This document shows positions 32,048-40,937 of a DNA stretch of 64,000 nucleotides, one piece after another. The stretch's first letter is position 1, and the number at the start of each line of letters is the position of its first letter. Under the pieces are notes generated by a model that was given only the letters and a program-made list of their open reading frames with translations, had not been told where the DNA came from and ran no database searches. Both the position numbers and the translations under genes were made by a program. The stretch lies in NCBI RefSeq assembly GCF_988242995.1, contig NZ_OZ547043.1. One strand, written 5' to 3'.

Positions 32048-32183
32048 TGTTTTTAGTCATCGTTATTCGACGGTAACAGTGGTTTTCAGCCGTTTTTTTT
32101 AGTTATATGTTTAGTTATACGGTCTGGCGGGTAGCTAAAACCGTATAACTAAAATCTGTTTTTTCCCGTGGATTCAAAAACGT

Positions 32184-33428
32184 ATGGCAAGAAAGGCGAC
32201 CCCACTCACCAACACACAGATCAAAGCAGCTAAACCAGCGGAAAAAGAATACACCTTACAGGATGGCGGCGGACTTTTTCTCCTCATTAAGCCGTCTGGT
32301 TCGAAACTATGGCGATTCAACTACTATCGACCATCGGACAAAAAACGAACAATCATTAGTTTGGGATCGCTCGATGAAGTATCCCTGGCTGATGCCAGAA
32401 AACGCCGTAGCGAGTACAGGACGTTAATTGCGTCAGGGATTGACCCACAGCATCACGAGCGGCAAAAACGCGAAGCAGAGGCTCGACGACAGGGCAACAC
32501 GTTCGAAAATGTGGCCGCATCGTGGTACGAAATGAAAAAAAACCAGAATCTCGCCCACAATACGATCAAGGACATCTGGCGCTCGCTAGAGAAATATGTA
32601 TTCCCGTATATCGGAAACACACCGATAGATACTCTCACCGCTCGCCGCTTTGTTGAGATACTCACGCCCATCAAGACACGTGGCAACCTGGAAACACTGA
32701 AACGCGTTTTACAGCGCATCAATGAAGTGATGGATTTTGCTGCCAACAGTGGACTGATTGACATCAACACCGCTGCGAACGTCCGCAAGGCATTCCCTTC
32801 CCCCACCAAAAAACACATGCCAACCATCCGACCAGAACAACTACCGCAGCTAATGCACGATTTATCGATCGCCAGCATAGAACGGCAAACCAGATTGCTG
32901 ATTGAGTGGCAGTTGTTAACCGCAACCCGTCCAGCCGAAGCCTCCGCCGCACGGTGGGAAGAAATCAACCTTGATGCGGCAACATGGACGATACCAGCCG
33001 GACGCATGAAGATGCGCCGTGATCATGTGATCCCTCTTTGCGCTCAGGCGATGGCAGTGCTTGAAGCCATGAAGCCGATTAGCGCACGAAGGGAGCATGT
33101 TTTCCCAAGTCTTAAAAATCCAGTGCAACCAATGAGCAGCCAGACAGCAAACGCAGCATTACGGCGAATGGGTTACACTGGTGTGCTGGTATCTCACGGG
33201 CTACGCGCCATATTCAGCACAGCGGCGAACGAAGAAGGATTTGAGCCGGACGTAATCGAGGCCGCACTCGCACACGTGGACACGAACGAAGTTAGACGGG
33301 CATACAACCGAAGCAACTACCTGGAAAAACGTAAAGTGTTAATGTGCTGGTGGGGTGATTTTGTGGAAGCAGCCTCAACCGGAACAACCATCGCCAGCGG
33401 GCACAGGGGATTACGCGGAATAAAATAA
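32184..33428 (+). CDS. P4-type tyrosine integrase
   Basis: 414-aa ORF; N-terminus KPSGSKLWRFNYY and C-terminal catalytic region resemble CP4-57/P4 integrases; adjacent to tRNA. Confidence 0.85.
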   Translation: MARKATPLTNTQIKAAKPAEKEYTLQDGGGLFLLIKPSGSKLWRFNYYRPSDKKRTIISLGSLDEVSLADARKRRSEYRTLIASGIDPQHHERQKREAEARRQGNTFENVAASWYEMKKNQNLAHNTIKDIWRSLEKYVFPYIGNTPIDTLTARRFVEILTPIKTRGNLETLKRVLQRINEVMDFAANSGLIDINTAANVRKAFPSPTKKHMPTIRPEQLPQLMHDLSIASIERQTRLLIEWQLLTATRPAEASAARWEEINLDAATWTIPAGRMKMRRDHVIPLCAQAMAVLEAMKPISARREHVFPSLKNPVQPMSSQTANAALRRMGYTGVLVSHGLRAIFSTAANEEGFEPDVIEAALAHVDTNEVRRAYNRSNYLEKRKVLMCWWGDFVEAASTGTTIASGHRGLRGIK

Positions 33429-33442
33429 AATATTTAAAAAAT

Positions 33443-33489
33443 TATTGGTTCCTAATTGGTTCCTAATTGGTACCAATTAGGAGCCAATT
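33443..33489. repeat. Direct plus inverted repeats (attggttcctaattggttcctaattggtaccaattaggagccaatt) just past the integrase stop
   Basis: Seen in sequence; two tandem ttggttcctaa copies and a palindromic ttggtaccaa core. Confidence 0.6.
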
Positions 33490-33691
33490 TGTGTCTCTTT
33501 ACTGTCTCATTTTGAGAAATATTTAAAATTCTTTTTATGTTAGAAAATTAAAAAATAATCAATCACACAACTCTTATTAAATAATTCTTGACTTGCTTTT
33601 TTATAGATTTGTATTCTTTTTATATGCTTTCATATGGTTACCGTCACTTTCATTCAAAAAGTGATATTTTGCTGTCTTTAGGAGAAATAAG

Positions 33692-33883
33692 ATGAGAGCT
33701 ATTCTTTTACGACCAGAGGTAAAGGCCTTGCTACGCATCAAGTCTGACTCGACCCTAACGGAGATGATTAACAAGGGCGGGTTCCCCAAAGGGTTCCGTA
33801 TCGGGCTGCGTCGCATTGGCTGGTATGAAGATGAGGTGCTCGCCTGGTTGAAAGAACGTGAGAGGGAAACTCGTGAAGCGTAA
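33692..33883 (+). CDS. alpA: AlpA-family transcriptional regulator / excisionase-like protein
   Basis: 63-aa ORF with motif GLRRIGWYEDEVLAWL typical of AlpA/Vis family. Confidence 0.8.
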   Translation: MRAILLRPEVKALLRIKSDSTLTEMINKGGFPKGFRIGLRRIGWYEDEVLAWLKERERETREA

Positions 33884-34336
33884 GTGTGATTAACGCTCGC
33901 CTGATTACTATCAAGCAACAAGACAATTAAGAGAGAACATTATGAATACTGGCAAAAATGCCCAAACAGGGGCAGGTTTTCGTTCAACCATAAAAAATAT
34001 GGCTGATGTTATTACTCAGTACAAACCTTACGAACGAATTAATTGAACTAATCGCACTTCCGTTTTAAATGGAAACGAACAATCGCATAGATTAAACGAC
34101 AAAATAAATATGCTTTTTACAAACAAAATAAAAGCGACCGCAGAGGGTCGCCAGAGAACATGTATTAAACTTGAATGCATCGCCAACAATGCCACATTTA
34201 CGGCTGGTGGGCAATGTGATTTGTGTGGTGGGCACACCTTCAACACATCCGACCACATGAGCCGGAAAACGGGATATACTCGCCTAATCCCTTATAAAAC
34301 GGGGCTCGGGATTGCTACCCCGCTGAAGCAAAAGGC

Positions 34337-34362
34337 GACACATGACGCGCCAGCGTCTTTTT
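34337..34362 (+). terminator. Candidate Rho-independent terminator in the island leader region
   Basis: gacgc-gcca-gcgtc hairpin followed by ttttttg. Confidence 0.45.
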
Positions 34363-38859: not shown

Positions 38860-38915
38860 TGGCAGTTCTGCATTATTTTTTGTGTTATTGAGTTGTAGAG
38901 CGTTTCAGGAGTTTT

Positions 38916-39125
38916 TTGAATCACATGAACGTTTCGCTGGTGGATATTCTTGACAAGTTGCAGCCAGGCCGACGCGTGCCAGCTCGCCGCAGTGCCTGGC
39001 ATCTTCCGTACTTCGTCTTTCTCGAACGGCGCGGAAACGATTTGATTGCGTTGAATCCCGTCACAGAGGATAGCGTTACGCTATCTCCTGAGAGTCTACT
39101 AGCCACAGACTGGGAGTACTGCTAA
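38916..39125 (+). CDS. Hypothetical protein (69 aa)
   Basis: ORF track only. Confidence 0.35.
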   Translation: MNHMNVSLVDILDKLQPGRRVPARRSAWHLPYFVFLERRGNDLIALNPVTEDSVTLSPESLLATDWEYC

Positions 39126-39661
39126 ACACAAACGCATCGAGGGTGCTGGCGTGTTGCCAGCCCCACCCCCTCCGAAATGATCCCCCAAAAAGTACAAAAT
39201 GATCCTCCATTAACGAACAGAAAACAAACAAACAAAGAGCAACAAATAAGCATTATTTACAATTCTTGACAAAAACACCCCCTATTTATAACCCTACCAA
39301 ATTTAAAATTACATCTACAAAACAATAAGTTACAAAATCAGCAACGGATCATTTCGAAAAAAACGGTTAGTCCCTTTTTCGAAAAGGGATCATTTTGTTG
39401 CTTAAACTCATATGCGGATTACATATCAATACGCTAGTGATAGCCGTTCTGGAATGCCACAGAAACGCGCTGTAATCGATTCTGGCGCAATTAGCTGTGC
39501 TAGGTAATGATTTACCTATCTGGGGATGTTGCGCACGTCTGGATTGCGTTACCACCGAAGATTGTGCGCGTATGGTGGCTGTTACGGTCGCCTCCCGACA
39601 ACGCAAAATTGCGGCGGCACAGTCGGTTTACCGCGCTAACACGGCTTGATTCACTCGCTCG

Positions 39662-39790
39662 ACTTGTCCCACCTCCCCCCCAACTTGTCCCAAAACAGCC
39701 TAGACTTGTCCCACCTTACCCAATTTATTTCTAACAAAATCAATTTGTTAGGTATCAATGGGACAGGTGGGACAGGTGGGACGGGTGGTT
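39662..39790. repeat. Iteron cluster 2: 3x acttgtccca then 3x gggacRggtg, same architecture as cluster 1
   Basis: Seen directly in sequence within a ~960-bp mostly non-coding AT-rich region. Confidence 0.75.
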
Positions 39791-40087
39791 TTGTATATAT
39801 ATACGAAAAATTGCATTCGGAGGGGGAGCAGAATACCTACACCCCATTGCTTATGGGAGCGCCAGCCTCGTCAAATTTTTACACCCGCGAAATAAAAAAT
39901 ACTTTTCGCTGGTGGGCATGATGCTGATATGGGGATCTCTATAACGACCAGCCCCATTTGGAACTATGCAAATCAGCACAGAAAGGGGATGCCTGATACA
40001 ATACCCTCGATGGGATAAAATGTTCATCTGTCGAAAGTCTATCCGCATTCACAAAAACGCGGCCTGTAATGATGTAAGCCACCTGTA

Positions 40088-40684
40088 ATGGTGGCCTGTT
40101 TGGGAGAAATAGCAGTGGTTTGTGGCGCGATCGCAGCAGACGGCATAAGTCCGCTAATGAAAGCCTACATCAAGTCAAGCGAGGATATGGTAGTCGGATA
40201 TATCGGCGAAGGTTCCTCTGCCGAATTAATGTCTGTTTGGCAGCCGTCACTTGAAAATGTGGCAATAGGTGGAATTTTTGGCAAGCTGGCGGATACGGCG
40301 CAGTTGATTACCGGACACACAACCAAAAGCCGCCTCAACGCTACCCTTGTGTGGGAAGGGCAGCAGCCGCCGGAATTTACCCTTGTCCTAGATTTTTTAG
40401 CGATGTCCAACGCAAAAACGGAAGTGAATGATGCCATTACGACGTTGCTGAAAATGGCATCGCCAGAACTAAACGACATTACGCCTTTTGGTCGAGTCCC
40501 GGAAGCCGTAACGATCAATATCGGCAGAAACGTGATGTTAACGAACGTTGTGATCAAAAGTGTGAGCTATCAGCTTGATGCCCCTCGCACACCGGAAGGC
40601 TATTTCACTCACAACACGGTAACACTTCTATGCAGTGGGAACACTTCTCTCAACCGCAGCAATATATCATCTGTTTTTGTTTAG
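40088..40684 (+). CDS. Hypothetical protein (up to 198 aa), orphan cargo ORF at right end of island; true start uncertain (alternatives near 40157 or 40184)
   Basis: ORF track; no recognisable motif; hairpin gccacc-tgtaat-ggtggc overlaps annotated start. Confidence 0.5.
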   Translation: MVACLGEIAVVCGAIAADGISPLMKAYIKSSEDMVVGYIGEGSSAELMSVWQPSLENVAIGGIFGKLADTAQLITGHTTKSRLNATLVWEGQQPPEFTLVLDFLAMSNAKTEVNDAITTLLKMASPELNDITPFGRVPEAVTINIGRNVMLTNVVIKSVSYQLDAPRTPEGYFTHNTVTLLCSGNTSLNRSNISSVFV

Positions 40685-40937
40685 GAGCCGCCGCCCAGCA
40701 CAAGCGCGAGTGATGCATTATTTGGCGGGGCTTGTCGCGCACCTAGTCACCAGTTCTACAACGGATAGCCGGAAAACGGCGAAATCTGTACATTCTTTAG
40801 CTGTTCGTTTTTGCAGCAAATTATTTTAGTTATACGTTTGGTTACACGATTTCAAAGCACAATCAGACAAACCATTTAAAATCAATTTGTTAAACGCTTA
40901 ATTAAACTACTCTCGTGGACCAAAAATCCCAAAAAAA

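Follow-up and report, generated by a model that had tools for sequence, protein, structure and literature searches.

What occupies the site between the proline tRNA gene proL and yejO on this chromosome, and how could it have come there? We examined this question for a stretch of 64,000 nucleotides (the window) of contig NZ_OZ547043.1 from assembly GCF_988242995.1. The window is Escherichia coli DNA. In it, yejM (30066-31826) and the tRNA-Pro(GGG) gene proL are separated from yejO (minus strand, 41024-43615) by a block of about 8.95 kb, which reaches from the 3' end of the tRNA gene (attL) to a damaged tRNA copy (attR). An original prediction, made from the sequence without database searches, had described the block as a phage satellite or as an island similar to the phage-inducible chromosomal islands (PICIs). 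The analysis presented here supports this reading: the block is accessory and mobile, it is syntenic with the PICI EcCICFT073, its integrase is 83% identical to that of the PICI EcCI11368.1, and it carries a phage-type cos site. We consider it probable that the block is a satellite of the Gram-negative PICI type and that a tyrosine integrase of the P4 type inserted it at the 3' end of proL. The class of the element, its integration site and its general layout are already known; the result is a fully mapped example.

The first line of evidence is the distribution of the block. The region 31800-41100 was used as a megablast query against 5,426 complete E. coli genomes, and genomes matching at least 80% of the query were counted as carriers. 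Whereas the flanks were matched in 5,425 genomes, the island was present in only 52. The usual state is the empty site, in which just the two flanks match, about 356 bp apart, as in strain WP4-W18-ESBL-09. Since most genomes have the empty site, the block is accessory DNA. Thus the claims that a mobile block interrupts the order yejM-proL-yejO and that this block is no part of the E. coli core both held.

Recent movement is indicated by a comparison of eleven loci encoding an identical PmgG protein (the product of a cargo gene discussed below). Ten of these loci came from a look-up in a protein collection, to which locus L001 was added (L numbers are our designations for the loci compared). 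In ten of the eleven, 0-5 mismatches per 8,930 bp separate the island from that in the window. The yejM flank shows 20-116 mismatches per ~1,860 bp in nine of those ten loci, and the narP-ccm flank 86-344 mismatches per 6,096 bp in eight loci, a comparison that covers the nine without L001. Expressed as divergence, the flanks of the carriers differ by 1.1-6% in this comparison of near-identical islands. One locus, L014 (GCA_013851005.1), equals the window throughout, with all compared flanks identical. In the eleventh locus, L019, the flanks are about 10% and the island about 3% different. Near-identical islands in divergent backgrounds, always at the same site, imply recent horizontal spread.

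Most relatives align with the window only up to position 39931. The canonical form of the island is 8.2 kb long (E. coli 042, LH10-b-1, Ec1117); up to perC and the cos site its genes are those of the window, then come ~100 bp, the right arm repeat and attR, and it has no cargo gene. In a literature search we did not find this particular island described, and the retrieved passages of the E. coli 042 genome paper do not mention it.

When the two junctions and the empty site (L002) are aligned with one another, the crossover falls inside the 3' end of tRNA-Pro (Table 1). In the tRNA fragment at attR a deletion begins directly after CTCTCGTG; it comprises 2 bp in the window and 7 bp in LH10-b-1 (L006 11677-11690). 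Damage to the tRNA-Pro fragment at attR, specific to PICIs, has been described (PMC10111431). The ends had originally been set at 32097 and 40850, which misses the boundaries by about 120 bp (left) and about 75 bp (right). These positions mark copies of the repeat TTTTAGTTATAyGTTTrGTTAyACG, which are internal to the island. The AGTTATAyG repeats are probably the arm sites of the integrase: the integrase has an Arm-DNA-bind_3 domain, P4 attP carries such repeats on either side of its core, and the repeats sit within the element. The locus and the arm-repeat motif are the same in the yejM-site PICIs EcCI11368.1, EcCI11128, EcCIED1a.1 and EcCIATCC25922, which were catalogued in 2018 with this motif as their 'att site core' (Fillol-Salom et al. 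2018, PMC6092414 Table S1). A later re-analysis moved at least 15 of those reference PICIs to tRNA genes (PMC10111431). With the alignment given above the att site of the yejM/proL PICIs can be corrected: the crossover takes place at the tRNA 3' end and not at the arm repeats. The native proL terminator is displaced to 40930-40962, and an island-borne hairpin followed by a T-run probably stands in for it, as its sequence suggests. Depending on the crossover point, excision could leave proL defective.

Proteins were compared with the profiles of PHROGs, NCBIfam and Pfam; PADLOC-DB 2.0 was used to look for defence systems. The profile searches bore out the predicted gene list, i. e. the integrase, AlpA, the small ORFs (open reading frames), the DUF927 protein, the single-stranded DNA-binding protein (SSB), the FinO-domain protein and PerC. 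These genes follow the four-zone organisation of Gram-negative PICIs (Mageeney et al. 2023, PMC10111431). Int and alpA form the integration zone, the eta-like remnant, the isrK-like leader and the C4-type RNA the Bro or immunity zone, and icd-orf61-DUF4222-DUF927-iterons-ssb the replication zone; the late or accessory end holds the FinO gene, perC, orf66, iterons, the cos site and the cargo. As expected for a PICI, the integrase lies at one end of an att-flanked element within ~7-15 kb, an AlpA-type regulator adjoins int in the same direction, and the element has its own replicase with adjacent iterons.

The validated PICI EcCICFT073 (PMC6092414) has the same one-strand order of int, alpA, the Icd-like gene, small ORFs, DUF4222, replicase, SSB, PerC and cos or late zone. 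Identities are 53% for Icd, 67% for DUF4222 (there, too, encoded immediately before the replicase), 66% for SSB, 56% for PerC and 40% for the first 160 residues of the replicase. Both elements are without terS, and reliance on a helper-type cos is presumed for EcCICFT073. They differ in the family of the integrase (25% identity) and in the att site. The island encodes a DUF927 helicase whereas EcCICFT073 encodes a P4-alpha-type primase, and its cos is of the phiP27/HNH type instead of lambda-like. The capsid and decoration homologues of EcCICFT073 are absent from the island, which has the FinO gene in addition; its single late-zone gene is of P1-family phage-plasmid origin. With EcCI11368.1 the island shares, besides the integrase, AlpA (64%), Icd (69%), DUF4222 (62%) and the C4 and isrK RNAs in the same place. 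In EcCI11368.1, however, the helicase is of the RepA type, and a terS of its own and a capsid-like gene are present, where the island has the DUF927 helicase, SSB, FinO, PerC and a bare cos.

Table 1. Features of the island and of its junctions; positions are those of the window.
Feature	Position	Strand	Evidence and remarks
proL tRNA-Pro(GGG)	31901-31977	+	ARAGORN; Rfam tRNA 54.9 bits; 3' end is the integration target, restored intact at attL
attL core CTCTCGTGCCGACCAAA	31963-31979	.	Junction alignment with empty site L002; completes the intact tRNA
Hairpin with T-run, island-borne	32008-32045	+	Inverted repeat I19, 14/14 complementary; directly after the restored tRNA
Left arm-type repeats (AGTTATAyG units)	32097-32155	.	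Direct pair 32097-32121, inverted copy 32139-32155; repeats D3, I21, I22
P4-type tyrosine integrase, 414 aa	32184-33428	+	NF007246 557.6 bits (cut-off 434); phrog_1
Terminator-like palindrome after int	33444-33489	+	Inverted repeats I7/I8; terminator scan
AlpA-family excisionase/regulator, 63 aa	33692-33883	+	phrog_66 E 2e-7; PF05930 weak; 41% to P4 ORF88
eta/'ash family'-like ORF, Bro zone	34110-34706	+	phrog_29966 spans ORF and icd; overlaps RNA genes; PGAP: pseudogene
isrK-like leader (P4 seqA analogue)	34287-34363	+	Rfam RF01394 47 bits; a1, b1, terminator hairpin 34344-34357
C4-type antisense immunity RNA	34388-34475	+	Rfam RF01695 76 bits (gathering 45), E 7e-14, model positions 1-87/87
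Downstream targets a2 and b2	34480-34519	+	Match the reverse complements of a' and b' exactly; P1 annotation shows this layout
Icd-like protein, 62 aa	34529-34717	+	NF033153 62.7 bits (cut-off 25); first gene of replication operon
orf61, 61 aa	34710-34895	+	phrog_3672; annotated in related islands
DUF4222 protein, 95 aa	34925-35212	+	phrog_285; PF13973; stop overlaps replicase start
DUF927 initiator/helicase, 711 aa	35209-37344	+	Pfam DUF927 E 4e-46, residues 168-435; GKT Walker A
Iteron cluster 1	37369-37505	.	2 inverted and 4 direct TGGGACARGT units, AT-rich spacer
SSB, 141 aa	37581-38006	+	TIGR00621 66.6 bits (cut-off 53.95); acidic C-terminal tail ending DEIPF
ProQ/FinO-domain gene	38042-38578	+	Interrupted in the window by TGA 38210-38212 (W57*)
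PerC-family regulator	38575-38859	+	phrog_994 E 1e-35; PF06069; 56% to EcCICFT073 PerC
orf66, 66 aa, missed by PGAP	38925-39125	+	Shine-Dalgarno; intact, 97-100% identical in all island variants; phrog_7206 E 2e-6
Iteron cluster 2	39662-39786	.	3 inverted and 3 direct units, then AT-rich stretch
cos-like site	39849-39900	+	10-mer CGCCAGCCTC, then invariant GTCAAATTTTTACACCCGCGAAAT
Variant-specific insert	39932-40763	+	~830 bp in place of ~100 bp of canonical island; blastn vs L006-L008
pmgG-like gene, 198 aa	40088-40684	+	phrog_1114 'PmgG-like' E 9e-60; PDB 9ay5_G E 4e-41
Right arm-type repeat	40824-40848	+	Repeats D3 and I9
attR core CTCTCGTGGACCAAA	40910-40924	.	tRNA fragment, 2-bp deletion; native proL terminator and yejO directly after

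The cos site connects the island to a particular group of phages. It matches the annotated cos region of phiP27 in 42 of 46 nt (91%), a 24-nt identical block included. In phiP27 and in the E2528-C1 prophage this sequence sits between the genes for an HNH endonuclease and a P27-family terS. An alignment of four island variants, the island beside dinD and the two phages showed that a block of ~70 nt is kept across satellites and phages. The cohesive-end 10-mer is CGCCCGCCCC in phiP27, CGCCCGCCTC in the E2528 prophage and CGCCAGCCTC in the island of the window. Among the complete E. coli genomes the cos site was matched 261 times on chromosomes and never on a plasmid; the matches that were opened are mostly the right ends of other satellite-like islands, and one is a true prophage. 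Other islands that end with the cos block are L009 (NZ_CP042246.1, beside dinD), L025 and L026. In one such island three large uncharacterised ORFs (843, 686 and 918 aa) lie upstream of cos; they might be cargo.

The lack of a recognisable gene for packaging redirection had been called unusual. Indeed no such gene was matched: the searches in PHROGs, NCBIfam and Pfam gave no terS, capsid, Rpp or Ppi-like match, and hence the packaging or hijacking gene that also characterises PICIs was not found. With a cos site at hand, this appears less odd. The statement that the block has no capsid, tail or lysis genes needs a qualification: the variant in the window carries one baseplate homologue, pmgG, which the canonical form lacks. 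Holin, lysin, sheath, tube and fibre genes were not found in the island; pmgG is its sole structural gene and belongs to a rare variant only.

From the cos site we predict that the helpers are phiP27-type myoviruses encoding an HNH nuclease together with a small terminase of the P27 family. phiP27 itself, annotated as a Stx2e phage, is a myovirus of 42.6 kb with an HK97-type head and a Mu-like tail. As the island has no capsid-remodelling gene, we infer that it would be packaged as concatemers into full-size capsids; five copies of the 8.2-kb canonical island amount to 41 kb. Thus the island would be a minimal satellite, with the cos site as its sole 'packaging module'. According to what Quiles-Puchalt et al. 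reportedly found in 2014, SaPIbov5 of S. aureus uses the cos sites of helpers with HNH-dependent terminases. SaPIbov5 and the PICMIs (minimalist chromosomal islands inducible by phages) of Vibrio resemble the island in that they carry the packaging signal of the helper instead of a terminase or capsid-remodelling gene, and PICMIs are packaged as concatemers in full-size capsids (PMC10803314). Packaging of this kind has been argued for EcCICFT073 as well. SaPIbov5 and the PICMIs live in other hosts, however, and have unrelated proteins, and for the island packaging is a prediction.

The second element that could be followed down to single nucleotides is the antisense-RNA module in front of the replication operon. 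In the C4-type RNA two segments are single-stranded, b' (UCCUUUUGCG, 34431-34440) and a' (GUAGCAA, 34447-34453). The complement of a' is found exactly, over 7 nt, at a1 (34312-34318) and at a2 (34480-34486). That of b' is found exactly at b1 (34328-34335, 8 nt) and at b2 (34510-34519, 10 nt), and b2 spans the Shine-Dalgarno sequence of icd, the ATG of which is at 34529. The order a1-b1-c4-a2-b2-icd, with b2 over the ribosome-binding site, is that of P1 immI (c4-icd-ant). The recognition sequences, however, differ from those of P1, and the module of the island precedes a replication operon whereas that of P1 precedes an antirepressor.

Homologues of the isrK and C4 module are present in phiP27, in the Stx phage Ss-VASD and in the PICI EcCI11368.1 (L023 9511-9699; L024 2517-2705; L011 4006-4191), where the isrK copies score 62-66 bits. 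Across the four homologous modules loops and targets covary, each element having its own specificity. In phiP27 a' is GTTCCAA and its target TTGGAAC, in EcCI11368.1 a' is ACGCCAA and its target TTGGCGT; the island has the 'a' specificity of Ss-VASD but a different 'b' specificity. Such covariation in nature is good support for a functional pairing. By analogy to P4 cI and P1 c4, the switch upstream of icd-orf61-DUF4222-helicase is inferred to hold replication off. Matches to the C4 and isrK profiles in some Gram-negative PICIs have been noted before, as has the position of the P4 cI RNA within eta (PMC10111431). With the present analysis the full target-site logic of a C4-type switch is mapped in a PICI and backed by natural covariation.

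The 711-aa product of the last gene of this operon had been read as a primase/helicase-like protein. The helicase part of this claim stands, with a DUF927 domain and a Walker A motif. A primase domain was not detected, DUF927 being the only Pfam match, and the protein matches only positions 284-887 of the 895 of the phrog_1139 'primase' profile. We therefore regard it as an initiator-helicase and not as a demonstrated primase, although DUF927 'primases' have been noted in Gram-negative PICIs and the 'Primase' family defined for them includes DUF927 (PMC10111431). There is also a weak match to the SCCmec helicase Cch1. In one relative island the replicase is a pseudogene.

The iterons of the original prediction were confirmed: of the 13 copies of the motif TGGGACARGT that the whole window contains, 12 lie in the island, and the number expected by chance is 4.4. 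To judge from sequence, iteron cluster 1 is the probable replication origin. Cluster 2 is a second origin-like site, comparable to P4 crr. The N-terminal ~160 aa of the DUF927 protein (35209-35690) are common to the replicases of EcCICFT073 (40%) and EcCI11368.1 (59%), which are otherwise unrelated, and in all three islands the replicase comes after the DUF4222 gene. The homology to these two replicases extends over the first 100-160 aa. Possibly, this N-terminus is a shared unit that binds the origin or contacts the DUF4222 protein.

Taken together, these features suggest the following course of events. In the resting state the C4-like RNA would pair through a' and b' with a1 and b1 in the leader and with a2 and b2 at the icd ribosome-binding site. 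As with P1 c4 and P4 cI, the effect of this pairing on the operon that has the DUF927 helicase as its last gene would be to end transcription early and to prevent translation, and replication would stay off. A helper phage entering lytic growth would turn on alpA and the early operon. Int and AlpA would then bring about excision, and the helicase, together with the island's SSB, would start replication from the iteron origins. The HNH nuclease and the P27-family terminase of the helper would recognise the island cos and load concatemers into helper capsids of full size. With room for 42.6 kb, such a capsid should take up about five copies of the canonical form (8.2 kb) or four to five of the 8.95-kb form. 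The pmgG-like gene would be a captured phage late gene in the accessory slot.

Several observations speak against such a satellite. The cohesive-end 10-mer of the island has 2 mismatches in 10 to that of phiP27 and 1 in 10 to that of the E2528 prophage. No second copy of cos was found in the complete carrier genome LH13-b; with this single copy, LH13-b has no resident helper of matching cos. Direct RNA cross-talk with the putative helper was considered and rejected, since the isrK/C4 module of phiP27 itself differs in both its a and its b specificity, and thus no such cross-talk is evident. With 47 bits the isrK-like leader stays just below the gathering score, which is 50. Proteins with a FinO domain are more familiar from conjugative plasmids. 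For the dependence on a helper we have to rely on homology and on the cos site, and it should accordingly be read as a prediction from sequence. Finally, in the scheme of SatelliteFinder the island has three of the five PICI core components and would be of 'Type C', a group of more than 6,000 elements that was set aside as uncertain (PMC10085698). Despite this classification, the cos site leads us to see in the island a functional minimalist rather than a wreck.

The cargo of the variant in the window needs a separate explanation. Its insert is present in only 2 of the 5,426 complete genomes. The ORF within it had been called an orphan, and by Pfam alone it would be one; the PHROGs and PDB profile matches in Table 1 identify it as a homologue of PmgG. 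In P1, PmgG forms a T4 gp48-like hexamer between hub and tail tube and is needed for tail formation (PMC9024508; bioRxiv 10.1101/2025.07.21.665459). An AlphaFold model of the island protein searched with Foldseek gave first the P1 baseplate structures 9vzk_2 (E 4e-15) and 9ay5_G (TM-score 0.82, target-normalised), then tube initiators of contractile injection systems. By tblastn against 50,697 phage records PmgG was found only in P1-family phages, with 72% identity in D6 and 41% in P1. Its closest relatives (82%) in a collection of 5.8 billion proteins are all on contigs of ~90 kb, which are uncultured D6-like phage-plasmids. The island protein (cluster P0001) is the only chromosomal version and is always found in the proL island. 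The donor of pmgG therefore belongs to a different phage family from that indicated by the cos site.

One explanation is that pmgG is a functionless passenger, left behind when illegitimate recombination took place with a D6-like phage-plasmid in the same cell and not decayed so far; we hold this to be about as probable as its opposite. The late zones of PICIs are known to capture phage late genes ('late gene capture', PMC10111431), and pmgG looks like an instance of it. The segment 40034-40687 is homologous to D6-like DNA (85% to plasmid NZ_CP104667.1) and includes the last 54 bp of the upstream phage gene. The insert is rare, and no convincing promoter precedes the gene: upstream there is only a weak sigma-70-like match (39993-40021, 9/12). 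Because all island copies are near-identical, selection on pmgG within the island is unreadable. On the other hand the ORF is intact and of full length. Relative to the nearest phage copy the synonymous divergence (dS) is 0.44 and the ratio of nonsynonymous to synonymous divergence (dN/dS) 0.19, falling to 0.07 in the C-terminal 121 columns; these values may reflect selection in an unsampled phage donor. Furthermore, several divergent lineages have acquired the pmgG variant. Most substitutions, and a deletion of 7 aa, are in a loop (~52-77) which is variable among phages and disordered in the model. Positive selection in this loop was considered (dN/dS 0.49) and dismissed on account of this variability and disorder.

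Another reading is that pmgG is a new kind of immunity gene: produced from the accessory slot of the satellite, the PmgG protein would act as a decoy mimic which co-assembles into the nascent baseplates of a P1-family phage, invading or co-resident, or caps them, and thereby aborts tail formation. We think this unlikely, yet worth stating. Unlike the copies in P1 and D6, the island gene stands alone, without tail-operon partners such as genes 22, 21 and bplB of P1. If the proposal were true, the decoy would protect the host population, and also the P27-type helper from a competitor. A precedent for satellite cargo that protects the population by preventing other phages from assembling their tails is given by the Tai (tail assembly inhibition) systems of PICIs, prophages and P4-like satellites (He et al. 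2024, PMC11364771). The retrieved passages of that paper do not describe the Tai proteins as related to tail components, and the link to pmgG is conceptual only. A decoy-type mechanism would, if true, join satellite-borne immunity as one distinct from that of the Tai proteins.

Returning to the island as a whole, we asked whether it could be something other than a PICI-type satellite. It could be the decayed and immobile remnant of a P4-like cryptic prophage at a tRNA hot spot, passed on by vertical inheritance. The island has features in common with P4: Int is 35% identical, the core is flanked on both sides by arm repeats, there is an AlpA/Vis-like protein, an antisense RNA of cI's Rfam family with seqA-like targets lies before the replication operon, and two separate iteron regions are present, as with ori and crr. 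Signs of decay are the FinO nonsense mutation in the window and the replicase pseudogene in one relative, and capsid, tail and terminase genes are missing. However, a tblastn search of 13 island proteins against P4 found only Int and AlpA in common, and membership in the P4 family was rejected. No island protein matched Sid, Delta, Psu, alpha or epsilon in PHROGs or by tblastn, in which the P4 proteins were not used as queries, and the cos site is not of the P2/P4 type. All other genes of the island are intact, and att cores, arm sites, iterons, RNA switch and cos are conserved. Above all, 0-5 differences per 8.9 kb in backgrounds whose flanks diverge by 1-6% (~10% for L019) require recent transfer. 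We therefore regard an immobile remnant as very improbable.

Another way to read the island would keep the satellite but exchange the helper: this could be a P1/D6-like phage-plasmid, with pmgG as a hijacking device acting on its tail. In favour of this, the sole structural gene encodes a protein 72-82% identical to an essential baseplate protein of D6/P1 (PMC9024508), and the C4/icd immunity has the layout of P1. Yet pmgG is present in only 2 of the 52 complete carrier genomes, and the canonical form is without it. No P1-type late promoter (-22 box plus -10) was found upstream of pmgG, and no P1 pac-like hexamer cluster in the island. The cos site was unmatched on any plasmid in the complete E. 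coli genomes, D6-like ones included. Moreover, the C4 specificity is unlike that of P1, and C4/isrK modules also occur in phiP27, Stx phages and other PICIs. The chance that a phage-plasmid is the helper thus seems to us even smaller, and a P27-type phage remains the predicted one. Smallest of all is the chance of an integrative mobilisable element that moves by conjugation via a plasmid or an integrative and conjugative element, as its FinO/ProQ protein (a family typical of conjugative plasmids), its DUF927 helicase related to the SCCmec helicase Cch and the missing terminase and capsid genes might suggest, since no relaxase, oriT-like feature or mobilisation protein was found among the ORFs searched, a phage cos homologue lies at the usual PICI position (PMC10111431), and the island is syntenic with the phage-mobilised EcCICFT073.

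Of the remaining genes, the FinO-domain gene is of some interest because it lies in an element with an antisense-RNA system; a similarly modest interest attaches to the captured P1-family baseplate gene. The literature search found no report of a FinO protein in PICIs. Its nonsense mutation (TGG>TGA, 38211) is shared with GCA_013851005.1 (L014), whereas the gene is intact in LH13-b and in most other copies. By its position, an in-frame ATG at 38219, just before the domain, could allow translation of the FinO domain to restart. The protein may be a dedicated chaperone of the island's C4-type RNA.

The original prediction had placed a novel anti-phage system among the uncharacterised genes. This expectation was not borne out: no PADLOC match was obtained at E <= 0.01 for 10 island ORFs (the scan left out AlpA, the Icd-like protein, orf61, SSB and orf66 from its ATG start), and the canonical form has no cargo gene. 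orf66 was considered as a Tad2-like anti-Thoeris protein and rejected, with a Pfam match of E 0.57 only and a single-sequence model (predicted local distance difference test score, pLDDT, 69) without significant fold match. Outside these islands no relatives of orf66 were found among 1.8 billion representative proteins or by a word-indexed search.

On the right side of the island the neighbouring gene is itself not constant. In the carriers L013 and L020, with flanks ~6% divergent, yejO is missing and narP follows directly after the island. The yejO autotransporter gene is thus variable as such, and it is a pseudogene in some other strains.

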